DNA from: an uncultured Lachnospiraceae bacterium
GTDB lineage: Bacteria; Bacillota; Clostridia; Lachnospirales; Lachnospiraceae
NCBI GenBank assembly: GCA_905233955.1
Contig: CAJOFQ010000006.1
Span: 6,706-70,705, forward strand
DNA: 64,000 bases
Reading direction: 5' to 3'
In this document: positions 29,801 to 63,326 of the stretch, piece by piece
How the letters are laid out: the number at the start of each line of letters is the position of its first letter
Numbering within the stretch: the stretch's first letter is position 1
Translations under genes and position numbers: made by a program
The notes under the pieces: generated by a model
The model's database searches: none
What the model was told of the DNA's origin: nothing
Seen by the model: the letters and a program-made list of their open reading frames with translations, nothing else

Positions 29801-32800
29801 TACGATGATCTGTTTCGGCAGGGTGGTATTGTATTTAACTATCTGGGTAATGAAAGAAAAAATACCTATGATAATTTTGGATTTGCAGGGGAGAGCAGCG
29901 GACTTGATATGGATGCCGCCAATGGTGATCCATATACCATTTCCATAGACATCCGTCAGGATGAGCAGGGACTTTTCATAGATGCCTGGTATGACAATGC
30001 TTTTGACGGCGTAGAGATCAAAGGACTTTTGAACTTCTATAAGTCAAAGCTTGAGGAAATATCAGAGCTTGTTCCTGACAAAAATAAGATCTATGCTCCC
30101 AATGATCTTTGTGCGGACTCCGGGATGTCACTTTCGGACTGGTACAAATTGACACAGAGGTTTTTGCCGGAAAGTGTTATGGCAATCGCCCGTCTTACAC
30201 CGCTGCAGCAGGGGATGCTCTACAGATATATCGCCGAGCCGGAGGGCAGGGCGTATTTCCTGCAGGATAAGCTTACGATATCAGGCGTATTGCAAAAAGA
30301 AAAGCTTAAAGCTGCACTTAAATTATTGTCTTTAAGATACGACGCGTTAAGAACAGTTTTTTTATACGACAATCTGGATGAACCCTGGCAGATAATATTA
30401 AAGGAACGCACTCCGGAATTTGTGGATATGTCAGATTTAGCTTTTTCTGATGTGCTTGCAATTGACGGGAAAAGAGGTTTTTCCCTGACAAAAGATCCGC
30501 TTATGCGCTTAACAGTCTGCAAACAGAAAAATGGTTCAGCAGAGATTTTGATCTCCATGCACCATATGATAACGGATGGCTGGAGTTTTCCGATTTTAAC
30601 CCGCAAGCTGATGGAATATTACAGGGATCTGTGCAGCGGTGCGGATGAGAGTATCATTGCCGGGCAGGTAAAAAAAGAGGCAGCAGATAACTGTTCCTTT
30701 ACAGATTATCTGAGATATTGCGCAGGATTAAACAGACCCAAAATCACGAAAAAATGGGTAGAATATCTGCAGGGAGCAGATGAAGGCGCGGCTCCTTATG
30801 TTTTTGATCCAGATAATAGTGATACTTTTATTTTCGCAGGGCGAAGCTTTCGTATCAGCAGGGAAATGGAAGATCGTATCAGGGCGTACACAGTCCAAAA
30901 TCATATTACCACAAGCAGCTTTTTCGGAGCGCTTTGGGGAATATTGCTGGGTTTTGAAAGCGGTGTGGAAAATGTAGTTTTTGCAGAGACTCTTTCAGGG
31001 CGCAATGCGGATATTGCCGGAATTGAGTCGGCGGTTGGAATATTCATACATACTATTCCTGTTTGCATCAGGCTAAGGGACAGTAAAACTGTGCTTGATC
31101 TCATGAAAAAAAGGCAGGAGGACTACATATCCATGCAGCCCTATGAGAATGCTGCCTTAAGTGAGATCGGCGCTGCAACAGGCTTTGGTTCTGCGCTGAT
31201 AAGGTCGTTATATGTATACGAGAATTATCCGGTGGAGGATGAAGCTGATTGGTATCATATAAATGGAATTCATGAGGAAGTGGATTACGCGATTACCTTC
31301 TGTGTGGAGGAAACAGATGGTATATCTTTGAATCTGCTGTTTGATGAGAATAAATATCACAGAGATTATATCGGACTTTTGATGGACAGGCTGATATATC
31401 TGGCACATCAGGTTCTGACGGATGAAGCCGTTACTGTTTTTTCCCTTGATCGTATTACACCAGAGGAGCAGAAACTAACGCTTTTAAATCTGGCAGGGGA
31501 GAATATGGATTTTCCGAAAAAATCCTTCCCCGAAATGTTTTTTGACCAGGCAAAAGACGACCCATCCAGGAGCGCTCTTTTGATGGATGGAAAAACCATA
31601 AGCTACGGCAAGCTCTTGAATGCTTCATGCGGACTGGCAAAAGAGATTGGACCAGGGGAAGAGAGATTTATTGCTGTAATGGCTGACAGAGGTTTTGAAC
31701 TTATAGCAAGCCTCATTGGAACGATGCTGGCAGGAGCAGCTTATGTGCCGTTGGATCCTGATTATCCTGTAGAGAGAATCAGGTATATACTTAATGACTG
31801 TGTTCCTACTTGTGTGCTTTATTATGTTAAGGAAGAACAGCCTGATGTCAGAAATTTGTTTGAGGAATATGATATTCCTGTTATTTCCACACCCATTGAT
31901 ACATTTGAATCCAAAGATCATACCTTTAAGCCAGGACAAAAGCTTATGTGTCGTCTGGCATATATGATCTATACATCAGGGACTACCGGCGAACCTAAGG
32001 GCGTTGAGATTGAACACTGCTCCCTGTCGGATATGATCTATGCCCATGAGGTTCGTTTTGGCAGCTTGTATAATGATACGGTTCTTTTTATGTCAAATTT
32101 TGTTTTTGACGCGTCTGTGCAGCAGATATTTACGCCTCTTGCCCAAGGCGGCAGAGTATGTATCATAACAAAAGAAAGGATGAACTCGTCAAAGGAGATC
32201 GCCCAATATTGCAGGGACAACAATGTTACCTTTATTGGTGCGACTAATGCGCTGCTTAGAATACTTTCCCCGGCGGATTTTGATGGTATCAGGGTTCTAA
32301 GCATCGGAGGTGATGAGGCGGATCCTGGGCTGTTTGAAAAATGGTCTCATTATTCTAAGCTTATTATCAATGACTACGGGCCCACAGAAGCTACCATACA
32401 TGCCATTTCCCATGCTTATACATCCGGGGAGAAAAGGCCTGTGCCTCTGGGAAAACCCTATCCAAATAAGCGGATATATATTATGCAGGGTGACAAGCTG
32501 TGCGGTATAGGGCAGCAGGGGGAGATCTGTATAGGTGGAAAGGGTTTGGCCAGAGGATATCACGGCAGACCGGAGCTTACAGACAGGCATTTTGGACCGG
32601 ATCCCTATTCTGATGGCAGGATATATCGTACAGGGGATCTGGGATTGTATCGCCCGGATGGGCAGGTGTTATTCAAGGGCAGAAATGATTCTCAGGTCAA
32701 GATCCGGGGATTTAGAATAGAATTACAGGAGATTGACAGCTGCCTTATGTCCTATGACGGAATAAAAGATGCTGTGACGATATGCAGGCAGGAAAAGAGC

Positions 32801-34105
32801 AGAGAAAACTACCTGATATCCTATGTGACTTCGAACAATAGGATTGAAATTAAAAAAGTCACTTCATATTTGAGAAGTCATTTGCCGGCATACATGGTTC
32901 CTGCATTTGTTATCCCCGTTGACTTTATTCCACTGAATTTCAGTGGTAAGGTTGATGTGGGAAGGCTTCCCGATCCTAAGCCCGATAAAAGAATTGAGTA
33001 CGAAAAGCCTCAAAATGATCTTGAAGAAAGAATTGCCGGATTATTTGAAAGGATCCTTGGCAGGACAAATGTAGGCAGAAATGATTCCTTTATCGACCTG
33101 GGAGGAACATCCCTTGACATGATGAGGCTTTTGTCAGGACTTAACGATCCGGGGATTCGTCTGGCTGATATAGCAAGTAACCCTACACCTGAAAGTTTAA
33201 GCGGCATTCTTCGAAACAGATATCAAAAGCAGGAAGGATGTCTTTTGCTCTGGGATGGCGATCCATATGTACCGCAGATATTCTGTGTCCCACCATCGGG
33301 AGGCATGTCATTATGTTATCTTGAGCTTTTCAGACAGATAGGATACAGGGGGCGGATCTATGGTCTTACTGACGAGAAATATAAGAGGTTCGGCAGTATG
33401 ACCATTGAAGAATTGGAAGGATATGATATACTTCGAGATGATCTGTGGGAAGCGAATCTTTTAAGCTATATGGAATCCATCCAAAGTGTCTTTAAAGCCG
33501 GTGATATCCTGATAGGCTATTCACAGGGAGGAGCGGCTGCCCATGAGCTGGCACTTAGGTTAGAAGGAATTGGCAAACCCTGTGGAAGGCTTATTATGCT
33601 GGAGGCAGTACCCTTTGGAACAGATGAATCCCGGGTGTTTGAGGCTGAAAGCGAAAATGACAGACTAAAAGCGGTAGAGAATATCTTTTTTGGCAGCGAG
33701 GTTTATAGAGATGACGAGGATGTAACAGAAATATCCTTGAAGGAAAGACTCTTGGAAATGCTGGAAGGGCATGGAAGCGCTTTGGATGAGGCCATGCTGC
33801 ACGCTTTGTTTGAAACATATCTGGTATACTCAATCAACACACTCCATCCGCTGACAATCAGCGGAAGAACCAGGGCACGGATCGACTCTGTTCTTTTGCC
33901 TGGTGATGGAGAAAAAGAGGCAGCCCAAATTATATTAAGTGACAAGGATCCTTGGATTGACTATACTTTAAAAAAGGGAGAATCCTGCAGACTGGGACAT
34001 GATGGCAATGAGCATCTGGTATTTCTGTCAAAATACAAAACACAGATAGCCGCACAGCTGAAAAAATGGCTGGAAACAGATAAGTGGAGCGAAAAAAATG
34101 CATAA
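23867..34105 (+). CDS. Trimodular non-ribosomal peptide synthetase, A-T-C(LCL)-A-T-E-C(DCL)-A-T-TE
   Basis: A3 cores are at ~24353 (LYTSGSTGEPKG), ~27533 and ~31963 (MIYTSGTTGEPKG). A8 motifs GRxDxQVKIRGFRIE and A10 Lys occur three times. Carrier Ser codons are at 25499 (LGGTS), 28700 (LGGDSIKAI) and 33110 (LGGTS). C1 has HHIISDG at ~26027. E-domain motifs are PVMKLF, HHLVIDEVSW (~29210), ESHGRG, RTVGWFTALYP, PNYGIGYG and FNYLG. C2 has LTPLQQGMLY and HHMITDG (~30560). TE has GYSQG (33514-). Start is ATG 23867, overlapping the upstream stop, or alternatively ATG 23885. Confidence 0.95.
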   Translation: MSESNRMKIKKTLYPDRIRSAIKSFGKNLALSFGDRRYSYNDLDSITGRLAAYLISQDIGCGDIVSVLISRNEYITIAPLGIIRSGAAYQPLDISHPTDRIRSMIENAGSQIVIVEKEYEHLLDDVNFGTDRKKLYIEDIPLLPEPEEGPWPYADPEDDFAILYTSGSTGEPKGIEITHRNIISLLDWYIDYYGVDENSRIGQHTSYVFDPAIAESMLPLAAGAAIFIIPEEIRTDLFLLDRFYNENKITHASLTTQLGRQFAMHMEGRTLKHLVVGGEALMSVAPPKNYTLHNGYGPAEGTLLITIFAVLKEYPNKVPLGSPLPEVKIYLLDEKGRQVSDGQPGELCFAGAHVTKGYLNRPDLTAKVYTVNPFSDDPEYSRLYHTGDLVKKDADGYYEYLGRIDRQVKIRGFRIEPAEIEAILKGCEGIDDAVVVPLDMGNEKMLAAYYLSNASVDEKLLSDLILSQKPSYMLPSFFIHMDSFPLTINGKIDYNALPGPMREATSQYEEPKSDTERVLAGLYRDILGIEHVGRQDNFLHLGGTSMSSAILLYNIFDAFSCRIGIRDIMEHPVLYDLADRIDEKLLSKETDNISFEQKLLPLQAEYDVSYSQNRMFTAQELLGYDDPTYLLRLKISIDGAFDKSRIQNTIKALILRHESLRTEFFISQDSLKQIIVKPTEAWLNDAVIRTEDRDLFPGFSMEEAPLFAWSASENEIEFQWHHIISDGVSSSLFAQEFIEAYNGNTLPPLRVHQKEYAEYEKQYMASPLYKKSLDSWRNYSSDHVDAEEIKLPQDNTFLPGMERIAGHFKSVLPKSLSEEINIFCHEKNITVYMFLLSVFSILLHRYTRMEKLILGTVMDGRNEPGTDKLQGMFVNTLPLFITVSDDYSISDFYSKISEIVLFSMENQSVPLEEIADAFSRMGGYQRTSRGSLLFDYLFVLQNFKNQVEDIDGCEVSLEYGDGGRAMYDLTLEMEEMEDGFHCDFEYCRGLFSEESIRVFAHHFDVLLLNCLSSSDKQTIGSLSVIDENEQKKLLYDFQGVPLDERALVYTVVDLLRDRARENPDSTAVVFCDEALSYRGLWDKSGLLANKLNQLFDQNTENHAVIFANRGISMITTIWAVLRAGGAYVPVSPEYPDERISYILDDCDAVCVIECDAKVPDAVRELLSQRNIPVISGNDLGDTVEFHDGLQHEVQIHENKLPGYQIHGSNASGIMLQKDSEAYMIYTSGTTGEPKGVVVSHGNLSALLFAYNDIYKLTPQDAVLQFADFVFDQSVWEIFHILTVGGTLCMITSDMARDPQKLSYYCNKNHVTVSMQTPGFLRLLDPDEFKGIRLVDVGGEAPDYKLLKAWSKGRTVLNTYGPTETTVNAASYIFSENGRQLTAEKDNVPIGKPIDGTRIYILDGDRLCGIGMPGELCIAGAQVTLGYYNRPQLTGEKFVKDPFFDGAMYRSGDLARYLPDGNIEFSGRIDDQIKLRGYRIELGEIESAIRRVPGIKDAVCTLQDTGDNKTLCGYYILNDTDTAVTEDELRQLLSEQLPSYMVPVHLMPLLEFPLTVSGKINKRALPKFDMVWQDGDEGAKTDIERDLADAFAAVLQLERVSVTADFIALGGDSIKAIRIVSLLREKGYHLSAGHLLKNSTIRSIAPLLKKTEGISYKEFDHVSPTPVMKLFFAADMPNSHWYNQSVMLLMKNYPGENALNNALSDLISAHGCLRMIRKDGGIVIRDISKMPSVKLAVFENCTKSKREDICTRLQSSMDPDNGIVMQAAIFKNDNEHRLFLAFHHLVIDEVSWGIILEDLDRLLNHEALYDRTISFGEWSKKLWSYSKSDDFLSEKAYWMRQYKELKKHDKDIQSWLSSYEDLNTQKTGFSSLSLSVSDDMAQKLSSIAALKYQSGMDAFLLAVLIHTIKLHDNISSISIQMESHGRGNIGDVHCDRTVGWFTALYPVLFDVADTFDEQIVVVKKALLDVPNYGIGYGLLYDDLFRQGGIVFNYLGNERKNTYDNFGFAGESSGLDMDAANGDPYTISIDIRQDEQGLFIDAWYDNAFDGVEIKGLLNFYKSKLEEISELVPDKNKIYAPNDLCADSGMSLSDWYKLTQRFLPESVMAIARLTPLQQGMLYRYIAEPEGRAYFLQDKLTISGVLQKEKLKAALKLLSLRYDALRTVFLYDNLDEPWQIILKERTPEFVDMSDLAFSDVLAIDGKRGFSLTKDPLMRLTVCKQKNGSAEILISMHHMITDGWSFPILTRKLMEYYRDLCSGADESIIAGQVKKEAADNCSFTDYLRYCAGLNRPKITKKWVEYLQGADEGAAPYVFDPDNSDTFIFAGRSFRISREMEDRIRAYTVQNHITTSSFFGALWGILLGFESGVENVVFAETLSGRNADIAGIESAVGIFIHTIPVCIRLRDSKTVLDLMKKRQEDYISMQPYENAALSEIGAATGFGSALIRSLYVYENYPVEDEADWYHINGIHEEVDYAITFCVEETDGISLNLLFDENKYHRDYIGLLMDRLIYLAHQVLTDEAVTVFSLDRITPEEQKLTLLNLAGENMDFPKKSFPEMFFDQAKDDPSRSALLMDGKTISYGKLLNASCGLAKEIGPGEERFIAVMADRGFELIASLIGTMLAGAAYVPLDPDYPVERIRYILNDCVPTCVLYYVKEEQPDVRNLFEEYDIPVISTPIDTFESKDHTFKPGQKLMCRLAYMIYTSGTTGEPKGVEIEHCSLSDMIYAHEVRFGSLYNDTVLFMSNFVFDASVQQIFTPLAQGGRVCIITKERMNSSKEIAQYCRDNNVTFIGATNALLRILSPADFDGIRVLSIGGDEADPGLFEKWSHYSKLIINDYGPTEATIHAISHAYTSGEKRPVPLGKPYPNKRIYIMQGDKLCGIGQQGEICIGGKGLARGYHGRPELTDRHFGPDPYSDGRIYRTGDLGLYRPDGQVLFKGRNDSQVKIRGFRIELQEIDSCLMSYDGIKDAVTICRQEKSRENYLISYVTSNNRIEIKKVTSYLRSHLPAYMVPAFVIPVDFIPLNFSGKVDVGRLPDPKPDKRIEYEKPQNDLEERIAGLFERILGRTNVGRNDSFIDLGGTSLDMMRLLSGLNDPGIRLADIASNPTPESLSGILRNRYQKQEGCLLLWDGDPYVPQIFCVPPSGGMSLCYLELFRQIGYRGRIYGLTDEKYKRFGSMTIEELEGYDILRDDLWEANLLSYMESIQSVFKAGDILIGYSQGGAAAHELALRLEGIGKPCGRLIMLEAVPFGTDESRVFEAESENDRLKAVENIFFGSEVYRDDEDVTEISLKERLLEMLEGHGSALDEAMLHALFETYLVYSINTLHPLTISGRTRARIDSVLLPGDGEKEAAQIILSDKDPWIDYTLKKGESCRLGHDGNEHLVFLSKYKTQIAAQLKKWLETDKWSEKNA

Positions 34106-54175: not shown

Positions 54176-57100
54176 ATGATCCAGAAGCAATATCGTGCCG
54201 GGACGCTTGAAGAATACAGGAGAAATCTATCCGAGATATCAGAATCAAGAGAATACAATACTGCCAAAACCGTAATGGCTCGTATTTACATTGAGTGCCA
54301 TGATGTTGAGGTTATTAAGAAAGCGGCGTCAATGGCAAGAGCCAGACTGCCAAAGGCAGTTATTTTTGGAATGACTAATGTTAATGGTGAGAGGTATGAT
54401 TTTTCCAATCTGTCACCGGATGACATTATCAAGCTTAGCAGTATAGTTATAGATCTTGTATGTATGGATACTTCATCAGTAGATGTTGAGGTTTATGACT
54501 GCGAAAAGACTCCGGAGCTTATAGCTGGAGGTCAGGTAGGTCTGAGGCTTAGCAATGAAATTAATGTCAAGGGTGTCGAACTGCTGGTTGCAGGTATTTT
54601 TACTTCTGTCGAGGATTTCATAGTAATGGCGTCAGCGGAGAATACAGACATACCTGTCTTTGGAAGTAAGGCATTCAATGCTCACTGCGATATTGATAAT
54701 GCTGACTATTCATATGTTTTTTTTAACGAGCAGGTGATAAGCAAGGGTATCCTTGTTGTTTACTGGAAGGGGCCTGATCTTAATATACGAACAGGCTACA
54801 ACTTTGGTTGGTCGCCAATCGGCAAAAAAATGACTGTCACAAAAATGCTGGATGAGCAAAGGGTTACGGAGATTGACGGTTACCCGGCTGCTCATGTATA
54901 TCGTAAATACCTTGGCTTGAAGCCGGAATTGATTACAGCGGAAAATGTCTGCGAATTTCCGTTTGGGGTTCAGAGGGGGAACCGGATTTTGGCCAGGATA
55001 GGATTAACTGCCAACGATGCAGATAATCCCAACGACATGTTTTTCTCTGCACCGGTCCATGAAGGTGAAGAATTTCAGTTTACATATGGTAACAGAGATA
55101 TTATTTTTGCGGAGACCTTTGCAGATGCAATGGAGGTCATGAGATTCGAACCGCAGGCGATTTATCTGATTGCATGTATGAATCGAAGCACCCTTTTGAA
55201 AAAAGATGTGAATGCAGAACACGATTTTTACCGCAATACCCTGCCTGAGCTTATGATTGTTCACGGTCAGTCGGAAATATTATTTGACAGTGAGGGAGGA
55301 GGAGAATTGAATTCCGCCCTTGTGTCCGTTGCCATGAGAGAGGGAGAGCCTCAGGGGAAGGAACCTTGGTTTAATGGCTTCGAAGGAGCAGTATGTCCAT
55401 ATAAGTCAGAGAGTATTCCCCTGGTTCAGAGGATGACAAAGTTTTTAGAGGCCACCACAAGAGATCTGGCGGACGCAGTAGAAAAGGCCAATCAGGCGAA
55501 TAAAGCCAAGACCCAGTTTTTATCCAGCATTTCCCATGAGATAAGAACTCCGATCAATGCGGTATTGGGAATGGACGAAATGATACTTCGTGAATCCCGT
55601 GAACCGCAGATTCGAAATTATGCTGCCAGTATCCAGAACTCAGGACGGACTCTTTTATCCCTGATCAATGACTTATTGGATTCCTCCCGTATCGACTCCG
55701 GCAAGCTTGAAATTATGCCGGTGGAATATGAGCTGTCATCACTGCTTAATGATCTTGTCAATATGACATCAGTAAGAGCCGATGAAAAGGATCTGGAATT
55801 AAAGGTCAATGTTGCCAACGATATTCCTCATGTGCTGCTTGGTGATGATACCAGGATCAAGCAATGCGCCCTTAATATACTTACGAATGCAGTCAAATAT
55901 ACCGAACAGGGTTCCGTAACCATAGATGTGGACTTTAAAAAGACAGACGACAGGCACATAGATCTTAGCTTTTCCGTTACGGATACGGGAATCGGAATCA
56001 AGGAAGAGGACATAGATAAGCTGTTTGTTGCCTATGAGCGCATAGAAGAGCAGCGGAACCGCAATATCGAAGGCACAGGGCTTGGTATGAATATTGTAAC
56101 TGCCCTGCTTTCGATGATGGATTCCAAATTGGATGTTAAGAGTGTATATGGCGAGGGGTCGGTTTTCTCATTTGTGGTATCACAAGAGGTAATAAATTGG
56201 GAGCCTATGGGTGACTTTACAGAGATGTACCGCCGCTCTATTGAGAGTATCCAGAATTACCATGAGAGCTTCCACGCTCCGGATGCCAGACTTTTGGTAG
56301 TGGATGATACCAGGATGAATCTTACGGTATTTTCCGGACTTCTCAAGGCTACACAGATTCAGATTGATACAGCGGAGAGTGGTAAGGAAGCTCTGAAGAA
56401 GGTCAAGAACAATTCCTACGACATTATTTTCCTGGATCAGAAAATGCCTGGAATGGATGGTATAGAAACCCTTCGCAGAATGAAGCATATGTATGAAAAC
56501 CGCAACCATGGCGTGCCAGTTATTATGCTTACTGCTAATGCTGTTGCCGGCGCCAGAGAGATGTTTCTGAGTGAAGGCTTTGACGACTATCTGTCCAAGC
56601 CCATAAACGGAAAAAAGCTTGAGAGGATGATACGGGAGAGGCTGCCTGAAGAAAAAGTTATTATTCCTGATCCGGATGAGGATAAATCATCCGATGATTC
56701 TTTGATAGCTGACAGTCCTTTTTTGCAGGGACTTGCAAAAATAGATACTCTCTCAGTATCCGACGGGCTGACTAACTGTATGAATGAGGAAATCTACAAA
56801 GCCACTATCAATGATTTTGTAACCAGTGCCGGATCTAATCTTAATGACATTCAGGGATTTATGGACAGTAATGACATAGAAAATTATACAATCCGTGTCC
56901 ATGCCCTAAAAAGTTCTGCCCGCATTATCGGGGCCAATGATCTGTCCGAACAGGCAAAATATTTGGAAAGCTGCGGAGATGAATCCAACATCGAAGAGAT
57001 TAGAAAAAACACTCCCAAATTATTGCAGGATTATCAGGATATTACGGAAAAAATCTCAGAGGTCTTAAATGGAAAAGAACCTAAGGCCAGTGAGACGGAA

Positions 57101-57331
57101 CAGGCTGCAAAAAGCGAGGAGAAAAATTCTATAGATGATTCCCAGATCAAATCAGCCCTGGACGGAGTAAAAGATTTTATTACAGTTTACGATTATGATG
57201 GTGCGGCTGATATACTAAAAATGCTTAGTGATTTTGACTTACCGGCCCATATCAGAAAATTAGTATCAACTCTTTCTGAACATATTACAAAATTAGAACG
57301 GGATGAGCTGTTGGAAAAATTATCAAATTGA
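54176..57331 (+). CDS. Cytoplasmic hybrid sensor histidine kinase: ~430-aa N-terminal sensor (possibly FIST-like) - HisKA - HATPase - REC - Hpt
   Basis: No TM segments. H-box SHEIRTPINAVLGM, N-box NILTNAVKYT, G-boxes DTGIGI and GTGLGM. REC (VVDDTRMN, FLDQKMPGMDG, YLSKP). Hpt (VHALKSSARIIGA). The ATG directly abuts the larC stop. Confidence 0.9.
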   Translation: MIQKQYRAGTLEEYRRNLSEISESREYNTAKTVMARIYIECHDVEVIKKAASMARARLPKAVIFGMTNVNGERYDFSNLSPDDIIKLSSIVIDLVCMDTSSVDVEVYDCEKTPELIAGGQVGLRLSNEINVKGVELLVAGIFTSVEDFIVMASAENTDIPVFGSKAFNAHCDIDNADYSYVFFNEQVISKGILVVYWKGPDLNIRTGYNFGWSPIGKKMTVTKMLDEQRVTEIDGYPAAHVYRKYLGLKPELITAENVCEFPFGVQRGNRILARIGLTANDADNPNDMFFSAPVHEGEEFQFTYGNRDIIFAETFADAMEVMRFEPQAIYLIACMNRSTLLKKDVNAEHDFYRNTLPELMIVHGQSEILFDSEGGGELNSALVSVAMREGEPQGKEPWFNGFEGAVCPYKSESIPLVQRMTKFLEATTRDLADAVEKANQANKAKTQFLSSISHEIRTPINAVLGMDEMILRESREPQIRNYAASIQNSGRTLLSLINDLLDSSRIDSGKLEIMPVEYELSSLLNDLVNMTSVRADEKDLELKVNVANDIPHVLLGDDTRIKQCALNILTNAVKYTEQGSVTIDVDFKKTDDRHIDLSFSVTDTGIGIKEEDIDKLFVAYERIEEQRNRNIEGTGLGMNIVTALLSMMDSKLDVKSVYGEGSVFSFVVSQEVINWEPMGDFTEMYRRSIESIQNYHESFHAPDARLLVVDDTRMNLTVFSGLLKATQIQIDTAESGKEALKKVKNNSYDIIFLDQKMPGMDGIETLRRMKHMYENRNHGVPVIMLTANAVAGAREMFLSEGFDDYLSKPINGKKLERMIRERLPEEKVIIPDPDEDKSSDDSLIADSPFLQGLAKIDTLSVSDGLTNCMNEEIYKATINDFVTSAGSNLNDIQGFMDSNDIENYTIRVHALKSSARIIGANDLSEQAKYLESCGDESNIEEIRKNTPKLLQDYQDITEKISEVLNGKEPKASETEQAAKSEEKNSIDDSQIKSALDGVKDFITVYDYDGAADILKMLSDFDLPAHIRKLVSTLSEHITKLERDELLEKLSN

Positions 57332-57390
57332 ATGAGAAAATTTTGTTAATAAATATTTAAAAATTTTAACAAAAATATTTATTATTATTA

Positions 57391-57419
57391 TTGCAATTAA
57401 ATCACGATTCGTGTATTAT
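57391..57419 (+). promoter_or_regulatory. Candidate sigma-A promoter TTGCAA-17 nt-TATTAT in an AT-rich spacer
   Basis: TTGCAA at 57391-57396 and TATTAT at 57414-57419. It lies upstream of a strong SD (GGAGGAG, 57471-) and the ATG at 57485. Confidence 0.45.
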
Positions 57420-57484
57420 CTACTTGTTATAATAATAACAATTCATTCAAATACATTTTGTGTTTTTCGAGGAGGAGATTTTTT

Positions 57485-57778
57485 ATGGCAGCAAAGAAGG
57501 AGACTGCGGCAAAGGCAACGGAAGCTAAGAAGGAAGCTCCGAAGAAGCGTGCTGCTGCTAAGAAGCCTGCAGCAGAGAAGAGTGTATCTCACATTTTTGA
57601 AATTGACGGTGAGCAGATCAATACTGATGATATCTCACAGAAGATTCAGGAAGCCTACAAGGCTGACGGCCATCAGATAGGACGCATGAAGTCAGTTGAA
57701 GTTTATTATAATTTTGGCGAGCGTAGGGCTTACTATGTTATCAATGGCAAGTCTGAGGACAAGTTTGTTGAGTTCTAA
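57485..57778 (+). CDS. Small protein with Lys/Ala-rich N-terminal tail and compact C-terminal domain (97 aa)
   Basis: ATG 57485 follows GGAGGAGATTTTTT. N-terminus is MAAKKETAAKATEAKKEAPKKRAAAKKPAAEK, and the C-terminus ..RAYYVINGKSEDKFVEF. A clean terminator follows. Confidence 0.65.
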   Translation: MAAKKETAAKATEAKKEAPKKRAAAKKPAAEKSVSHIFEIDGEQINTDDISQKIQEAYKADGHQIGRMKSVEVYYNFGERRAYYVINGKSEDKFVEF

Positions 57779-57811
57779 TATGTCGTCTCGATTTCGTTTT
57801 CGGTATTTTTG

Positions 57812-57840
57812 GCGTGACAGGATTTTCTGTCACGCTTTTT
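57812..57840 (+). terminator. Rho-independent terminator
   Basis: GCGTGACAG (57812-57820) pairs with CTGTCACGC (57827-57835). The loop is GATTTT, followed by TTTTT. Confidence 0.75.
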
Positions 57841-57860
57841 GCTGTACCCGGACTTTTATT

Positions 57861-58709
57861 ATGTGCTGTATGATTTTATTGACAGCATTTATGTTTTCTT
57901 TCTCATTATGCAGCGAAGTGTCAGCGGAGACCTCGAATCTTACTGTTTATGCCGGTGAGATTTGGTCATTGGATTACCACGGTGAGGTTCGATGGATAGA
58001 ATCGACGGATAACAGTATCGTAACGGCGGATTATTCCAAGAACAGGGTAACAGTAAGTTTCAAAGCTCTAAGACCGGGGGATGCAACAGTTACTGTTCAC
58101 AGAAAATACCTTTCAGATCCGGTATCCTATAATATTCATGTTATGGATAATTCCGGACTGTTTTCCACTATGTATGTAGGGCTGGATAAGAGCAGTAAAA
58201 AATATGTCTGGGAGATTTCAAACGAATCCAATATCAATTTTAAAAATGTAAAATTCACTGTAAAATATCCCGGGAAGAAATCAAAAAAGAACCAGTTGGT
58301 TCAGGGTGTTGAGGCTGGAGGTACTGCTATAGCCATCAGCCATTTTGCAACAAATTCTCATGCGGCAGACGCCCAGTTTGTGGTTTCAGAGCTTGAAAGA
58401 GAAGTATATTTCCAGGAAGGTTCTAAGCTTTCCAACCAGGTATCTGTAGAAGTGAAAAGAAAAAAGGTCAAATATGTCGGAACGGATTTTGAGTTTTATA
58501 TTAATAATTCTTCCAATGTCAGACCTGATGTGACAGTATATGCATATATTTACGATACTAAGTCCGGCAAGGTATTAAAGACTCTGGAGTGCACCTATTA
58601 TCATGAGGCTCAGGGAATGAAAAGGGTTCCCAGAACTATCAGGATCAATGGTATTTATGGCAAGCGGCTTCAGGTATATTGCTGGTGCAGCTCTATGGTG
58701 AATAATTGA
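57861..58709 (+). CDS. Secreted hypothetical protein with N-terminal Ig-like (Big_2-like) segment
   Basis: The start is placed after the terminator, at ATG 57861. Signal peptide MCCMILLTAFMFSFSLCSEVSAE. The segment ..VRWIESTDNSIVTADYSKNRVTVSFKALRPGDATVTVH resembles bacterial Ig-like group 2. No clear SD. Confidence 0.55.
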   Translation: MCCMILLTAFMFSFSLCSEVSAETSNLTVYAGEIWSLDYHGEVRWIESTDNSIVTADYSKNRVTVSFKALRPGDATVTVHRKYLSDPVSYNIHVMDNSGLFSTMYVGLDKSSKKYVWEISNESNINFKNVKFTVKYPGKKSKKNQLVQGVEAGGTAIAISHFATNSHAADAQFVVSELEREVYFQEGSKLSNQVSVEVKRKKVKYVGTDFEFYINNSSNVRPDVTVYAYIYDTKSGKVLKTLECTYYHEAQGMKRVPRTIRINGIYGKRLQVYCWCSSMVNN

Positions 58710-58812: not shown

Positions 58813-58846
58813 AATGCCTGTCAACGCGACAGGCATTTCCCTTTTT
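58813..58846 (+). terminator. Rho-independent terminator
   Basis: AATGCCTGTC (58813-58822) pairs with GACAGGCATT (58828-58837). The loop is AACGC, followed by TCCCTTTTT. Confidence 0.75.
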
Positions 58847-59040
58847 CAGGGATAATTCTTTGGGTATTTCACCCGATTTTTCCACAACATTCACATATTA
58901 TCATTAGCGCTTCGTCTGTGATTCATGTTTGCTGCACTTTAGCACATTACATGCTTCCTAAGGAACAGGCTTCATGTCGTAATCTGCTGATCCTTGTATC
59001 ATATCATGCATAGGCGGGGCGTTTAGAAAGGAGCATGATT

Positions 59041-59241
59041 ATGCAGGAAATTATCAAAGAATATGGATCAGTCATCATATCAGTGGTTGCGATTTTTGCC
59101 CTGGCGGCCATGATCAAAACCCTCTTAGCCGATGACGGAACAGTAATGGAAGTATTTGGAGAGGTAATGGCCAAATTCTTTACCATGGCTGGCGATTTTG
59201 CAGGTATAGCGTCTGACTCTGCATCTAATGTTACCCCGTAA
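59041..59241 (+). CDS. Flp-like pilin candidate without recognisable leader peptide (66 aa)
   Basis: ATG 59041 lies 7 nt after GAAAGGAG. The N-terminus MQEIIKEYGSVIISVVAIFALAAMI has an EYG + hydrophobic helix as in Flp pilins. It is the first gene of the ATPase/platform operon. Confidence 0.5.
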   Translation: MQEIIKEYGSVIISVVAIFALAAMIKTLLADDGTVMEVFGEVMAKFFTMAGDFAGIASDSASNVTP

Positions 59242-59251
59242 GGAATAGACT

Positions 59252-60367
59252 ATGGATGGGACTGAGACTTTTTTAAGTGAGGATGAAACTTTTTTTGGAC
59301 CTCTGTACAGGTTCGTCAGTGACGATAATATTACAGACATAGATTTTAATGGCAGCCGTATATGGCTTACAAATACAGACAATACCCGCTATATGAGTGA
59401 TGTGGTACTGTCGGCGGAATTTGTAGAACAGTTTTCCAATCGGGTATCTAATGTTGTAAGCAAAGCATTTCACCAACAGCAGCCCATTTTAGAAGCCGAG
59501 ACAGATCGTCTCAGGATAACAATAGTTCATGAATCCGTTGCAGTATCGGGAAGGAGTATATGTATCAGAAAATCTCTGCCATATGTCAGGATGACTGAGG
59601 AGAGTATGCTTCGTGAGGGCTATTGCAGCAAGGAGATTCTTAAGCTGTTAAAAAACTGTGTACTGGCAAAAAAGAACCTGACTTTTTGTGGGGAGCCTGG
59701 CGTTGGCAAAACAGAGTGCGCAAAGTTTTTCTCACAATATATACCTGCCAACGAGAGAGTAATTACTATAGAGGATAATCCTGAATGGCATTACAGGGAG
59801 GTTAATCCAGGCAAGGATTGTATTGAATTAAAGGTTAATGACCGCATGGACTACACACAGGCGATCAAGACAAGCCTGAGGCTTAATCCCAAATGGATGA
59901 TGCTTTCTGAGTCGAGATCTGTTGAGGTGGTGAAATTAATTGAAGGTTTTTCAACCGGCGTTAGAGGAATGACTACTCTGCACACCGATGATGTAAGAAA
60001 GGTTCCTGACCGTATGGTCAATATGGGCGGCCAGATTCGCAGTGAAAGCCGTATGGAAAATGATATATACAGCTTCATAGATATAGCTGTCCTGATACGA
60101 AGGAAGGAACATAGAGATGCTGCCGGCCCAGGCAGGGTATACCGCTATATAGATCAGATATGCTATTTTGAGCGTAAGGATCAAACCAACTACTGTCACA
60201 TGATAGTAGACGATGGTGAATTTGTATGCGATCAGCTTCCGGAGAATCTGGAAAAAAGCTTTGAAGCTTTGCAGATGCAGAATGACTTTAGAGTAATAAA
60301 CGATCGATCTTCCTCTCCGGGATTAAGGGATCATGGAACCTATCGGGGATTTGCGGATAGTTTTTGA
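59252..60367 (+). CDS. T2SSE/CpaF/VirB11-family secretion ATPase
   Basis: Walker A GEPGVGKT (59691-59714), Asp-box/Walker B region RLNPKWMMLSESRS, His-box TTLHTDD. 371 aa. Confidence 0.85.
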   Translation: MDGTETFLSEDETFFGPLYRFVSDDNITDIDFNGSRIWLTNTDNTRYMSDVVLSAEFVEQFSNRVSNVVSKAFHQQQPILEAETDRLRITIVHESVAVSGRSICIRKSLPYVRMTEESMLREGYCSKEILKLLKNCVLAKKNLTFCGEPGVGKTECAKFFSQYIPANERVITIEDNPEWHYREVNPGKDCIELKVNDRMDYTQAIKTSLRLNPKWMMLSESRSVEVVKLIEGFSTGVRGMTTLHTDDVRKVPDRMVNMGGQIRSESRMENDIYSFIDIAVLIRRKEHRDAAGPGRVYRYIDQICYFERKDQTNYCHMIVDDGEFVCDQLPENLEKSFEALQMQNDFRVINDRSSSPGLRDHGTYRGFADSF

Positions 60368-60374
60368 AAGGCGG

Positions 60375-61724
60375 GTGAATAATGTGAAGTCTTTGTCCGA
60401 AGAACTGACAAGGTATGGATATGTGTTTTCCATGAAGAGAAGCATCATGTTGTATACCTTTGCCTTTGTGCTGATGCTGGCCCTGGGGAGGTTTTACTCC
60501 CTGGGGTTCATCGCCCAGGCAATTGTTTTTACGGCAGTTTTTTTAATGCTGCCGTTTTTTATAAAAAATATATTTGCAAACCGGTATAACCAAAAACGGT
60601 TTTCAGATCTTAATATATACATGGAACAGTTTTTGTATTCCTTCCAGCGCAGCGGCAAGGTGCTTGCCACCATCGAGGATCTTATCAGCATTTTTGAGGA
60701 TGGAACGATGAAGGCCACTCTGAAAAAGGCCAGGCATCATATTCTCCATACATTTAATGAAGCAAATGTGGAGGGAAATGCCCTTGCTATAATTGAAAAG
60801 GAATATCCATATGATGGGTTAAGAAGGATTCACCGTTTTGCTGTAGCATCCGAAGAAGTGGGCGGTGATTACAGGGAGTCCATAAGACTGCTGCTTGAAG
60901 CCAGAAGAATGTTCGCGGATAGAGCATATGCCCTTCAGCAGAAGCAAAAGGCAAAACGCCGGGAGGTATTTTTGTCTATAATAACTTCTTTAATCCTTTG
61001 TTCGATGATCTTTATGCTATCCTCCAATATAGGAGTGGACATTTCAGATATTCCCCTGGCTCAGGCTGTTACAGCTTCAGTATTGATAATGGATCTTATT
61101 ATATTTTATCTGGCTGATAAAAAGCTGACAGTCGGTTTTGTTGAGTCTGATCATCAAAGGGATGATGAAATGGTAAAGACCTACCATCGTATGAAGAATT
61201 ACAAGGATGGTATTTTCTTTCAGAGACTGGGAAAACAGATCGCAAAGAGGCGTCTGACCCGTGAGATTGAAAAGCAGTATCCGGGATGGCTGATGGAGAT
61301 TTCATTATTGCTGCAAACAGAAAATGTGCCTGTGGCTATCCAAAAATCATACAAGCTGGCACCAAAGGTATTACAGCCTGCCCTAGGAGATTTAATTCTT
61401 GGCATCCGCGAAAATCCGGCTTCCATGGAACCCTACAGATCCTTTTTGTCAGAATTTGCAATTCCTGAGGTTGCATCCTCCATGAAGATGCTTTATTCAA
61501 TATCATCCGGAGCAGGCGGTGATGCCAGAATGCAGCTTGCAGATATGATCAGAAGGAATCAGCAGATGTTTGATAAAGCCAAAAAGATGGAGAATGAAGA
61601 TTCCCTTTCCGGAATGCAGGCAATGTTTTTGGCACCTCAGCTTACAGGCGGCTTTAAAATGGCTGTGGATATGGCTTTGCTATTAATAGTATATATGGGA
61701 CAGCAGACAATAACGGCCGGGTGA
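60375..61724 (+). CDS. Polytopic membrane protein, probable TadB/TadC-type (T2SSF-like) platform, two-lobed
   Basis: Two modules, each a cytoplasmic helical region flanked by TM pairs. It sits directly after the ATPase. The start is uncertain: GTG 60375 or 60384 after AAAGGCGG, or the ORF-track ATG 60333 overlapping the ATPase gene. Confidence 0.55.
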   Translation: MNNVKSLSEELTRYGYVFSMKRSIMLYTFAFVLMLALGRFYSLGFIAQAIVFTAVFLMLPFFIKNIFANRYNQKRFSDLNIYMEQFLYSFQRSGKVLATIEDLISIFEDGTMKATLKKARHHILHTFNEANVEGNALAIIEKEYPYDGLRRIHRFAVASEEVGGDYRESIRLLLEARRMFADRAYALQQKQKAKRREVFLSIITSLILCSMIFMLSSNIGVDISDIPLAQAVTASVLIMDLIIFYLADKKLTVGFVESDHQRDDEMVKTYHRMKNYKDGIFFQRLGKQIAKRRLTREIEKQYPGWLMEISLLLQTENVPVAIQKSYKLAPKVLQPALGDLILGIRENPASMEPYRSFLSEFAIPEVASSMKMLYSISSGAGGDARMQLADMIRRNQQMFDKAKKMENEDSLSGMQAMFLAPQLTGGFKMAVDMALLLIVYMGQQTITAG

Positions 61725-61727
61725 ATA

Positions 61728-62057
61728 ATGGATAGTGTAATAAAAAGCTTTATGGGACTATATTTTATGGCTTTTTTATGTGTTATGGGGATAACCTTTT
61801 TACAGTCACAGCTTCAGTCATGCCTGGCAGAGGAATTTCTGCTGGAATCAGTGGTTAAAATCCAGGAGGCACATTATGATGAGGAGGTTATCAGGGAATG
61901 TGTCAATCTGGCTTCTGACAATGACTATTCTCTTAATGTAGATATAGAGGAAACTGACAGTGGATACTACAAAGGACAGGTTGAACTGGTCTATAAATTC
62001 AGCGTTCCGCTTATAAAGATTAAGCTGGAAAGAAGATTAATGGAGTACATAATATGA
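61728..62057 (+). CDS. Small protein with single N-terminal TM helix (pseudopilin/TadE-like position), 109 aa
   Basis: N-terminus MDSVIKSFMGLYFMAFLCVMGITFL. It starts 3 nt after the platform gene stop. No family recognised. Confidence 0.45.
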   Translation: MDSVIKSFMGLYFMAFLCVMGITFLQSQLQSCLAEEFLLESVVKIQEAHYDEEVIRECVNLASDNDYSLNVDIEETDSGYYKGQVELVYKFSVPLIKIKLERRLMEYII

Positions 62058-62152
62058 GATTAGCAGTAGAAGATTTTGGAATAGCAGTAATACAAATTAT
62101 ATTTGCAATATCAATGATTGGAATGTTTTGGACAGTTATTGAGATATTGTGA
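62054..62152 (+). CDS. Unlisted 32-codon ORF: minimal Flp-like peptide MRLAVEDFGIAVIQIIFAISMIGMFWTVIEIL
   Basis: The ATG overlaps the upstream TGA (ATATGA). The motif AVEDFGIAVIQIIFAI resembles the Flp core A-[IV]-E-[YF]-G-[LI]-hydrophobic. It is below the 60-aa ORF-track cutoff. Confidence 0.35.
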   Translation: MRLAVEDFGIAVIQIIFAISMIGMFWTVIEIL

Positions 62153-62171
62153 ATTCTGATAATGTAAAAAT

Positions 62172-62645
62172 ATGAAGGAAATCATAGAAGAATATGGAAG
62201 GACGCTTTTAAGTATAATTGCAGCGGCAGCAATAATGTTGATATTTACGGGAGGAGGACAGGAGGGTATTGCCGCAAGGCTTCTTACAGGTTCACAAAGC
62301 GGATATGGTATTGAGAGGGTATCGGCATCTTCAAATGGGATTTCAGCCGGAGATGATAAGCTTGATATTGTCGTTTCTAAGAAGCTTGTAGCCGGGGAAC
62401 AATATTCTCTTTTACAGATTATAAGTGCCGACAATGATGCAAGGTTTACAGGGGGAAATATTATTTTCGCGGATAAGGTATATGATCCTGATGAATTGGA
62501 AGAAGGTTTTTCCAATGATGTGGAATATGAAGGAGATGAGATTTTGTTTTTAAAACAGGGATTATATCATCTGTGTGTTTCAGTGGCATGTGAGAACGGA
62601 ACAGACTTTATGACAGACATTTATGTGGCGGTGGGGGAAGAGTAA
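62172..62645 (+). CDS. Pilin-like protein sharing the N-terminal MxEIIxEYG + hydrophobic helix motif, with ~120-aa C-terminal domain
   Basis: MKEIIEEYGRTLLSIIAAAAIMLIF aligns with the 59041 product MQEIIKEYGSVIISVVAIFALAAMI. 157 aa. Confidence 0.5.
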   Translation: MKEIIEEYGRTLLSIIAAAAIMLIFTGGGQEGIAARLLTGSQSGYGIERVSASSNGISAGDDKLDIVVSKKLVAGEQYSLLQIISADNDARFTGGNIIFADKVYDPDELEEGFSNDVEYEGDEILFLKQGLYHLCVSVACENGTDFMTDIYVAVGEE

Positions 62646-63286
62646 TGAGATATATTACATTTGGTTTATGTTGTATTTTACTGATTACAACCATATGGCT
62701 GGCTCTTTTTGGTTTGGAAAAAAGAACGGCATATGACAGAACACTAAAAATCGCGCTTCATAATGCCATGGAAGAGGCTATGAATAATATGTTAAAGGGC
62801 AGCTCTGGCAAGGCATATGACGATGATGATCTGAAAAATGACGCCATAAATATATTAGAGGAACAGCTTAAAAATGATGACAGGAATTTTTCTCTAAAGG
62901 TGGATTCTGTGACGGCGGATGCCAAAAAGGGCTTACTGTCAATGCATGTGACAGAATACTATACAAGAGCTAATGGTAAGGTTGGAAAGCTTGAGGATGA
63001 AGCTACAATTATTCTGGAAAGAAGTGCAAGGACCGGTTGTTCGGTAATTACATTCAAACTGCCTGATGATATTGCAAAAGGGCTTGAATATCCCAAAATC
63101 CTGGGACAATACACAATTTGCAACGGGCATGCATACAAGGTTCCTGCGGCGATTAAGCTTCTTGATGAGAAGGGGATTAGGATTGTATCATGGATTAACA
63201 CCAAATCCAATCAGAGCTATACACCAAAACAGCTTACAGAAAATATTGTTGACGGTGACGCAGAGTTTTTAGCTGTCATACGGTGA
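62645..63286 (+). CDS. Membrane-anchored hypothetical protein of the pilus-like operon (213 aa)
   Basis: The start overlaps the previous stop (TAATG). N-terminal TM MRYITFGLCCILLITTIWLALFGL, then a soluble domain. Confidence 0.45.
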   Translation: MRYITFGLCCILLITTIWLALFGLEKRTAYDRTLKIALHNAMEEAMNNMLKGSSGKAYDDDDLKNDAINILEEQLKNDDRNFSLKVDSVTADAKKGLLSMHVTEYYTRANGKVGKLEDEATIILERSARTGCSVITFKLPDDIAKGLEYPKILGQYTICNGHAYKVPAAIKLLDEKGIRIVSWINTKSNQSYTPKQLTENIVDGDAEFLAVIR

Positions 63287-63297
63287 TGGTAAGGAAT

Positions 63298-63326
63298 TTG
63301 ACAAGCAAAATATTAACGATTACAAT
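63298..63326 (+). promoter_or_regulatory. Sigma-A-type promoter TTGACA-17 nt-TACAAT upstream of the histidine kinase gene
   Basis: TTGACA at 63298-63303 and TACAAT at 63321-63326. GGAGG at 63361-63365 precedes the ATG at 63376. Confidence 0.55.

Follow-up and report, generated by a model that had tools for sequence, protein, structure and literature searches.

A chromosomal operon of Lachnospiraceae encodes a putative Tad-like filament machinery several of whose candidate subunits begin with an EYG-type N-terminus

We examined a 64,000-nt stretch of DNA (hereafter, the window) from an uncultured Lachnospiraceae bacterium (contig CAJOFQ010000006.1) and focused on seven closely packed genes on its + strand. 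By our reading of the open reading frames (ORFs) they span positions 59041-63286 and encode a secretion-type ATPase, a polytopic membrane protein and five small proteins, three of which begin at the initiator Met with a short motif ending in Glu-Tyr-Gly (EYG) or its close variant. A first-pass annotation, made from the letters of the sequence, had described these genes as a Tad/Flp-like pilus operon with leaderless pilin candidates, and the ORF positions that it gave were reproduced in the window. The genes and the two signals that bound them are as follows.

58813-58837, T-rich tail to 58847, + strand: terminator-like hairpin that ends the upstream gene, with a 10-bp stem containing 5 G-C pairs; upstream operon boundary
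59041-59241, + strand: major-subunit candidate, 66 amino acids (aa), MQEIIKEYG start, MQEIIKEYGSVIISVVAIF / MQEIIKEYGSVIISVVAIFALAAMI
59252-60367, + strand: hexameric secretion-type ATPase, 371 aa, presumed assembly motor
60333-61724 (maximal ORF, 463 aa) or, more likely, 60384-61724 (GTG start, 446 aa), + strand: polytopic platform protein
61728-62057, + strand: minor-subunit candidate, 109 aa, MDSVIKSFMG followed by a hydrophobic helix, MDSVIKSFMGLYFMAFL
62054-62152, + strand: mini-subunit candidate, 32 aa, MRLAVEDFG and a single hydrophobic helix with nothing more, MRLAVEDFGIAVIQIIF
62172-62645, + strand: minor-subunit candidate, 157 aa, MKEIIEEYG, a helix and a C-terminal beta-type domain, MKEIIEEYGRTLLSIIAAAAI
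62645-63286, + strand: tip/adhesin-type minor-subunit candidate, 213 aa, N-terminal helix MRYITFGLCCILLITTIWLALFG and a C-terminal domain of extracellular type
63298-63326, + strand: promoter-like site of the next gene, TTGACA-17-TACAAT, 11/12 matches; downstream operon boundary

The 32-aa ORF overlaps the stop of the 109-aa gene and has a GGAG 8 nt 5' of its start, and the start of the 213-aa gene overlaps the stop of the 157-aa gene. Since the genes overlap or abut between the terminator and the next promoter, we read them as a single operon; both of these boundaries had been proposed before and both were found. The gene 3' of the operon encodes a HAMP/HisKA kinase. Two starts were set from the relatives of the proteins: the platform probably begins at GTG 60384, in line with the 444-449 aa of its homologues, and the 109-aa protein does begin at 61728, where its N-terminus fits the family consensus ME.IIK.F.G.

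The major-subunit candidate consists of MQEIIKEYG, ~20 hydrophobic residues and a short amphipathic tail. Its start at 59041 has AAAGGAG 7 nt upstream and an in-frame TAG stop at 59011. The sole alternative in-frame start, the ATG at 59035, would add two residues and lies 1 nt past the GGAG, which makes the Shine-Dalgarno (SD) spacing unusable. The gene at 62172 is preceded, three codons upstream, by an in-frame TAA, and the codons between the two include no start. The in-frame stops and the lack of upstream starts indicate that a Gly-terminated leader is impossible for the products of both genes, so that their description as leaderless stands. With the 32-aa ORF, the EYG-type class has three members in the window.

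We followed these N-termini through the relatives of the operon. The ATPase has 2121 homologues, and those bearing names are from Lachnospiraceae; in a scan of one genome per GTDB species, 329 places encoding an ATPase relative were confirmed. The best 80 of these 329 loci, each with up to 10 kb of flank, were read. Most of them are Lachnospiraceae loci, and some belong to Clostridium or Roseburia; represented are Lachnospiraceae, Roseburia, Ca. Weimeria, Lacrimispora, Anaerosporobacter, Lachnoclostridium phytofermentans, Clostridium cavendishii, C. tyrobutyricum and BVAB1. The orthologues of the 66-aa protein were recovered via the ATPase and the genomic context. The conserved plan starts with a 53-80-aa protein (a tandem duplicate in some loci), the ATPase, the platform, a ~110-aa protein and a 32-36-aa protein, and continues, often after a 44-51-aa protein that the window does not have, with a 140-185-aa and then a ~195-235-aa protein. 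Order, strand, start register and SD sites are kept in 79 of the 80 loci, across families of Clostridia.

A total of 229 ORFs open with the motif M-x-x-[ILV]-[ILV]-x-[EQ]-[YF]-G and a hydrophobic stretch behind it; they lie in 79 of the 80 loci and all on the operon strand. In 165 of the 229 this is the sole in-frame start, and a GGAGG-type SD precedes most by 5-9 nt. When the Met requirement was dropped from the scan to avoid circularity, 284 sites were found in the 80 loci and the window (277 on the operon strand), and the nearest ATG was exactly three codons upstream at 252 of them. The MxEIIxEYG N-terminus that had been pointed out in the window is thus distributed over nearly all of the related loci, and the leaderless start is kept across five paralogue classes. 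Counted from Met1, the ~110-aa class and all four length classes of the EYG type share the register I4-I5-K6-x-[FY]8. A phmmer search with the 66-aa protein against 1.84 billion representative proteins gave 17 matches, 16 of them non-self; 14 of the 16 align from the first residue of both proteins, and one from the second residue of both. The exceptions are an over-extended gene call containing ...QMKEIFEQYG... and a spurious match within an 1851-aa protein.

These data bear on whether the small ORFs are real. They could be chance or decayed frames beside an orphan VirB11-like ATPase, with no functional system at all, and two results would agree with that: the small proteins have no curated family, and a word-index search for homologues of the 66-aa protein gave nothing but the query. 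The maintenance of order, strand, start register and SD sites in all but one of the loci, the coherent alignments of the orthologues and the translational coupling of the genes leave this explanation hardly credible, and we regard it as effectively refuted by the conservation data.

Several of these genes are given wrong starts by automatic gene calling: metagenome gene callers make the 109-aa protein 96 aa long, the platform is called as 463 rather than ~446 aa, and some major subunits are over-extended upstream (e.g. P0254, called as 100 aa). Such mis-starts hide the conserved N-termini from the databases.

Among 50 unique orthologues of the major-subunit candidate, with the consensus MQEIxKEYGPAxITVVAIxALxAxIxxLIGxDxxSxVGxAFxxLIxxFF, M1, Y8 and G9 never change, position 3 is taken by Glu or Asp and position 7 by Glu or Gln in every sequence, position 4 is Ile in 47, and position 10 is Pro in 33. 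Over all 177 unique EYG-type sequences, Gly9 is invariant. The 32-aa class (41 unique orthologues, 32-36 aa) has the consensus M[KR]x[IL][IV]E[ED][YF]G and the 109-aa class (46 orthologues) the consensus ME.IIK.F.G.FF.LLL. The other two classes have C-terminal domains. The 157-aa class (44 unique orthologues, 139-185 aa) gives weak PKD/immunoglobulin (Ig)-like Pfam matches in 4 of 30 members (best 5e-4), and the 213-aa class (31 unique orthologues) matches Flg_new, the Listeria-Bacteroides repeat, in 6 of the 23 that were aligned and scanned (best 8.6e-6). These Flg_new- and PKD-type domains imply an N-in, C-out topology, as in pilins. The 213-aa protein is a candidate for a tip or adhesin-type minor subunit. 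Each of the four minor-subunit candidates has an N-terminal helix and two carry such extracellular modules; the Pfam model TadE matched none of the four.

We also looked for the enzyme that would process such proteins. A profile hidden Markov model (HMM) built from two canonical TadV sequences and the motif G.[GA]D.[KR], which matches both, were applied to six-frame ORFs of >=80 aa in 1.35 Mb of sequence, comprising the 80 loci (+/-10 kb), the 64-kb window and L001. No A24-like ORF was found in the 1.35 Mb: apart from the controls, which were recovered at 5e-99 and 6e-69, no ORF passed E 0.05, and the motif was absent from all hydrophobic ORFs. A Walker A motif of ParA/TadZ type was likewise found neither in the window nor in the operons of the related loci. 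The claim that the locus has no prepilin peptidase and no TadZ/CpaE gene is therefore borne out in the window and, for the peptidase, extends to the related loci. Some canonical monoderm Tad systems also have no peptidase linked to the locus. In 26 of the 80 loci, the window not among them, an Mrp/NBP35-like P-loop ATPase (SGKGGVGKS...ILDADITGPSIP) is encoded 1-2 kb upstream of the major-subunit gene, outside the conserved operon (for example, L012 8557-9417 and L018 113-832). It is probably a matter of conserved chromosomal synteny rather than a TadZ analogue.

A class III leader, which ends in Gly or Ala and is removed before assembly, is seen neither in the window nor in the family, unless the nonapeptide is itself that leader. 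In such a scheme the machine would be the same, with MxEIIxEYG a nine-residue class III leader cut after Gly9 by an A24 peptidase of the PilD/ComC/TadV type encoded elsewhere, and the mature protein would start at residue 10, without the Glu5/Tyr6 pair. The invariant Gly9 and the ~20 hydrophobic residues behind it suit this scheme, yet the leader would then be the most conserved part of the protein and would not vary in length over the paralogues and ~80 species, whereas known prepilin leaders vary in length. Canonical Flp leaders have an acidic end, [RK][DE][EQ]xG, that resembles [KE][EQ]YG, and the top local hhalign match to canonical Flp pairs the two Gly residues, without significance (P 0.018); at the next position, however, 33 of the 50 major subunits have Pro, an unlikely +1 residue for an A24 prepilin peptidase. 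The nonapeptide is net acidic and not basic, and the 213-aa class has no consistently placed Gly (e.g. MKHVSIVSISTMV). As to the enzyme, the Bifidobacterium Tad locus is not known to contain a peptidase either, and PilD or ComC is present in many Clostridia. MSH systems likewise have no peptidase in the locus (PMC6668835). Against this stands the absence of a linked peptidase gene from every one of the 80 loci. Taking these points together, we consider cleavage after Gly9, the leading alternative, unlikely. We favour subunits that are not processed because no other part of any paralogue is so well conserved, or varies so little in length, as the nonapeptide, because Pro so often follows Gly9, because the 213-aa class offers no regular Gly and because a peptidase is never linked to the locus.

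In addition to the subunits, we examined the two proteins that would assemble them. Searches of Pfam and NCBIfam gave a family at threshold for the ATPase and for no other component of the operon. The ATPase matches Pfam T2SSE at 5.5e-19, above the 24.9-bit cutoff, so that its assignment as a T2SSE-type ATPase in the first-pass annotation is upheld by the profile. In NCBIfam it matches VirB11 at 1.8e-30 and the TadA-type model at 4.2e-24, and resembles the TrbB and FlaI models as well, all far below the curated cutoffs. A profile of 16 homologues searched against the PDB gave VirB11 (1.9e-27), CpaF (2.1e-22), the archaeal GspE (GspE2, 6e-20) and FlaI (7e-16), while PilB/PilT/GspE-type structures reached only 1e-8 to 1e-10. 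From these values, the ATPase is by its sequence a member of the VirB11/CpaF/FlaI clade and not clearly a CpaF. The 16 homologues keep the Walker A motif GEPGVGKTE, ITIEDNPE, LSESRS and TTLHTDD. The unusual SESR in place of GE[IV]R, which had been remarked on before, is real: the Walker B region reads WMMLSESRS in the window and the family has LSE[AST]RS throughout instead of the usual GE[IVL]R. A SpoIIIA-like feeding-tube operon was considered and rejected, SpoIIIAA being absent from the NCBIfam matches of the ATPase.

For the platform, the Pfam family reached most often is T2SSF, with sub-threshold matches in 7 of 39 orthologues (best E 2.5e-4). The canonical Tad loci used for profile comparison were those on annotated Rhizobium, Ralstonia, Novosphingobium, Pseudosulfitobacter and Sphingobium plasmids. 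In hhalign, the C-terminal half of the platform aligned with the T2SSF region of TadB at a probability of 75% (P 2.6e-5), and the N-terminal half gave P 6.7e-4 with TadC, 5.7e-3 with TadB and 1e-4 with p38 of the plasmid pLS20, compared with P >= 0.03 for the reversed-template controls. An [SE]xGGD motif occurs at equivalent places in both halves and is the sole link between them, hhalign of the halves against each other being not significant. The confident AF2 model (pLDDT 82, pTM 0.76) is all-helical, with two helical bundles parted by membrane helices. The two-lobed platform proposed earlier thus holds to the extent that both halves are T2SSF-like by profile alignment, while the Pfam model stays below threshold, and we consider it moderately supported that the platform is a remote two-domain T2SSF protein, like a fused TadB-TadC or PilC.

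Compared with the Tad/Flp systems (Caulobacter Cpa, Aggregatibacter Tad), the window locus has in common a major-subunit candidate of ~60 aa with Glu-Tyr, a ~20-residue helix and an amphipathic tail, one ATPase of the CpaF/VirB11 clade, platform domains with a remote likeness to T2SSF and several minor-subunit candidates with N-terminal helices. The tail LIG.D..S.VG.AF..LI..FF is colinear with ...LG(T/D)..(K/R)T.F... of canonical Flp, in an alignment that is not significant (P 0.056). There are also differences. The window subunits have no Gly-terminated leader and their EY lies at positions 7-8 from Met1 rather than at +5/+6 after cleavage; TadV/CpaA, TadZ/CpaE and CpaB are missing from the locus; a single fused protein forms the platform; VirB11 is no more distant from the ATPase than CpaF is; and the Flp_Fap, TadE and T2SSF models stay below threshold. 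Consequently, the first-pass view of a Tad/Flp-like pilus operon holds for the core logic of a type IV filament (an ATPase, a T2SSF-like platform, and major and minor subunit candidates) and not, in the tests made here, for membership in Tad/Flp, in that the ATPase falls below the NCBIfam cutoffs and Flp_Fap finds nothing. We would describe the locus as kin to the Tad family yet outside it.

On the whole, we think it probable that the locus encodes a type IV filament (Tad-like) machinery of a distinct kind, widespread in Clostridia, in which the subunits are made pre-matured. Several results weigh against this reading. Pfam and NCBIfam contain no family for the major subunit, with no Flp_Fap match in its 50 members, and hhalign of the family against five canonical Flp is not significant either with the Flp leader (P 0.018) or without it (P 0.056). 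The best local match, itself non-significant, pairs KEYG-S with the DEQG-A cleavage site of Flp, and an invariant Gly9 before a hydrophobic stretch is also the expected look of a short class III leader. The N-terminal tail of the subunits has a net acidic character, whereas prepilins are oriented by basic leaders. The evidence for the platform is sub-threshold: its profile found only noise among the PDB sequences and a Foldseek search of its model against the PDB gave nothing better than E 0.05, which is not strong negative evidence because the PDB may hold only short soluble T2SSF fragments. Finally, the search for A24 peptidases reached 10 kb to either side of each locus, and a peptidase could be encoded elsewhere in these genomes.

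If the locus is such a pre-matured Tad-like system, we can suggest how it would work, by analogy with the mechanism of known type IV filaments; filament formation, the absence of processing and an adhesive function are predictions of this scheme. The subunits would insert into the membrane with their short N-terminus inside. One hexameric ATPase of the VirB11/CpaF clade would turn or push the fused two-domain platform in the cytoplasmic membrane, and the platform would lift the small membrane-anchored subunits into a growing helix that has their N-terminal helices as its core and that crosses the cell wall. The 66-aa protein would be the major subunit, and the 109-, 32-, 157- and 213-aa proteins would be minor subunits with a part in starting assembly and a place at the tip, which they would cap and where the Ig-like and Listeria-Bacteroides-repeat modules of two of them may serve adhesion. 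Translation would yield every subunit in its mature form, with the conserved M-x-[ED]-I-[ILF]-x-[EQ]-[YF]-G beginning at the initiator Met, and with an end that is already mature neither a cleavage step nor a prepilin peptidase would be needed. Glu7 and Tyr8, held at a fixed distance from the free amine of Met1, would take over the core-contact role that Glu5 and Tyr6 have in processed Flp.

The relatives of the ATPase on plasmids suggest a further connection. PLSDB contains no close relative; the best matches (27-31% identity, E 1e-30 to 1e-38) are CpaF/VirB11-family genes on Gram-positive conjugative plasmids, namely those of Enterococcus faecium, the pLS20 family, the Bacillus anthracis/cereus group and Listeria, a likeness that is at the level of the ATPase. 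In the same database, canonical plasmid CpaF proteins match the ATPase at 1e-15 to 1e-22 and VirB11 proteins at 1e-11 to 1e-13. The first-pass annotation had named clustering of the ATPase and platform with a non-pilus system as a result that would speak against its reading, and this was found in part: the ATPase matches VirB11 at least as well as CpaF, and its nearest plasmid relatives are conjugative VirB11-like modules and not Tad.

The likeness to genes 36-41 of pLS20 and to the E. faecium plasmid goes beyond the ATPase, which matches at E 1e-33 to 1e-38. The modules, located at 4979-9447 in L090 (B. subtilis pLS20-type, NZ_CP014473) and at 5602-10216 in L089 (E. faecium, NZ_CP027515), have the same order of ATPase, platform, ~115-120-aa protein and small one-helix proteins. 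The polytopic p38 and p39 of pLS20 (~250-275 aa) align weakly with the N- and C-terminal halves of the window platform (P 1e-4 and 8.6e-4 to 2e-3, respectively), and p40 (120 aa) is homologous to the 109-aa protein: the 109-aa class aligns with pLS20 and E. faecium p40 at an hhalign probability of 70% and P 3.9e-5 (reversed control 0.028). The small one-helix proteins of both plasmids (47-50 aa, MLDQNxDR...WxIGAV..., three tandem copies in pLS20) also have no Gly-terminated leader, and a large gene for a thioester or SpaA-type adhesin lies upstream in these modules. Alignment of the major-subunit family with p41 of pLS20 was not significant in hhalign (P 0.01). Unlike the window operon, which is chromosomal and has no genes of a type IV secretion system (T4SS; VirB4, VirD4, relaxase) in its flanks, the plasmid modules lie inside T4SS operons with VirB4 and VirD4, their platform is split in two and their small protein is without EYG. 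In an account of the pLS20 family from 2021, genes 36 and 38-41 are listed as unknown and gene 37 as a putative VirB11, and Gram-positive conjugative elements are said to form no pili (PMC8557374). By analogy with the chromosomal operon, the pLS20-type and E. faecium modules may build a filament.

The conjugative relatives, together with the neighbours of some loci, raise the question of whether the product is an adhesive pilus at all. Giant proteins with a signal peptide, 1300-2150 aa long, are encoded 3' of the operon in at least 17 related loci (e.g. L010 4650-9038, L053 4151-9199 and L087 14366-19069, and also L012, L019 and others); the window has no such neighbour. A Peptidase_S8 subtilase domain is present in 3 of the 5 tested, and in L010 an N-terminus of the 213-aa type is fused into a 1462-aa protein with an S8 subtilase domain, as if displayed on a filament. 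The machine might be a membrane complex or short pseudopilus for the export or display of the large neighbouring surface proteins (S8 subtilases, repeat adhesins), or an accessory of DNA transfer. The position of the closest plasmid ATPases inside conjugation operons, beside thioester/SpaA-type adhesins, and the homology of the ~110-aa protein to p40 fit such a role, whereas the window operon has neither a giant neighbour nor T4SS genes and lies among uvrC, topoisomerase, ftsH, proS and cca, and L085, too, revealed no VirB4, VirD4 or relaxase genes. The giant proteins themselves have ordinary Sec-type N-termini, and a Flp-like major subunit of 55-66 aa, tandem in some loci, fits a filament better than a piston. 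We judge an export or transfer complex quite improbable, and continue to favour the Tad-like filament with pre-matured subunits.

This favoured reading can be placed beside other type IV filament systems. In the uncultured gut clade TANB77, according to a paper of 2024, a Tad-like locus of Clostridia encodes a platform in which TadC and TadB are fused, beside pilin-like proteins that are recognisable from context only; it resembles the window locus in its TadA-like ATPase, its single fused platform and its run of small one-helix proteins (PMC11680825). It differs in having CpaB, TadZ and CpaE and in the sizes of its ATPase (640 aa), platform (693 aa) and pilin-like proteins (143-237 aa); it belongs to a different family, and the EYG-at-Met1 feature is not described there (PMC11680825). 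Denise et al. (2019) reported new Tad systems in Clostridia, and MSH loci without a peptidase (PMC6668835). The monoderm Com pseudopilus and type IVa pilus (T4aP) share with the window an ATPase, a two-domain platform (remotely T2SSF-like in the window), one major and about four minor subunits or candidates for them, a single operon and a single-membrane host. In contrast, Com (ComGA/GB/GC, ComC) and T4aP (PilB/PilC/PilA, PilD) have a Gly-ended leader with Glu at +5 and need an A24 peptidase, and their ATPases are of the PilB/GspE type, which match the window ATPase family only at 1e-8 to 1e-10. In the literature (open-access papers and bioRxiv), we found no description of leaderless pilins, of peptidase-independent pili or of the present system.

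A stronger version of the favoured reading is that the operon represents a new branch of type IV filaments that has neither a class III leader nor a prepilin peptidase, that keeps its initiator Met, and that shares ancestry with the pLS20-type, enterococcal and possibly pXO2-type genes 36-41. We regard this as possible, though doubtful. If it were true, some Gram-positive conjugative plasmids would build a Tad-like filament, contrary to the view that monoderm conjugation is pilus-free.

The surroundings of the operon in the window are those of a core chromosome. The upstream flank contains ftsH, a three-module nonribosomal peptide synthetase (NRPS), a spoIIE-type phosphatase, uvrC and topoisomerase, and the downstream flank a kinase and response-regulator pair, proS, cca and HU. 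With core chromosomal genes on both sides, a phage or plasmid origin of the window was rejected, and so was the operon as part of a conjugative element, T4SS genes being absent from the flanks. Eleven metagenome contigs carry an identical ATPase gene. The NRPS (3424 aa, 23831-34105), with matches to three condensation and three adenylation domains and one Pfam PP-binding stretch, represents secondary metabolism on a chromosome of Lachnospiraceae; the gene of the SpoIIE-type phosphatase is 3' of it. On the 5' side of the operon, at 54176-58709, lies a 1051-aa hybrid histidine kinase with FIST, receiver and Hpt domains, followed by a Lys/Ala-rich DUF6465 protein and then a ~282-aa secreted protein with weak Ig-like (Big_2) similarity; the second kinase and regulator pair is directly 3' of the operon. 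The FIST hybrid kinase region and the downstream pair are possible regulators of the operon.

Among the related loci, a major subunit of the form MKEIFEQYGSVIIAAVAISALVAIIV[MV]LL[AS]TD is almost identical in Clostridium, Anaerosporobacter, Lacrimispora, Lachnoclostridium, Anaerocolumna and Velocimicrobium (L055, L057, L058, L067, L069, L072-L079, L081, L085 and L086), often in two tandem copies. In L085, it lies just 3' of genes for a ParB-like and an actin-like (ALP) protein, and that actin-like N-terminus recurs upstream in L078 and L086. The near identity of this subunit across genera and families, together with the ParB/ALP neighbours, suggests a recent horizontal spread on a small mobile island. 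Two loci each were found in C. fimetarium and in one metagenome-assembled genome from rabbit gut. One locus, L061 (JBQKHF010000003.1), is labelled Thermoguttaceae (Planctomycetota), and its operon is of the Roseburia-like type and nearly identical to that of L050; this assembly is likely mislabelled or contaminated.

To our knowledge, a class III leader on the prepilins, together with a dedicated aspartic peptidase, defines all type IV filament systems described, bacterial and archaeal. If the subunits of the present operon are made already mature, a conserved and widespread system would break this defining rule, and would show which N-terminal chemistry the assembly needs, namely a free amine with Glu and Tyr at a fixed distance. 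All components but the ATPase are annotated as hypothetical, and pilus profile searches miss the subunits and the platform; surveys of gut and rumen Lachnospiraceae that rely on such searches therefore probably undercount surface filaments. The remote kinship with the unknown genes of the pLS20 family and of enterococci suggests a testable role of those genes in mating-pair formation. Culturable carriers of the operon include Clostridium tyrobutyricum ATCC 25755, Lachnoclostridium phytofermentans and Anaerosporobacter mobilis.

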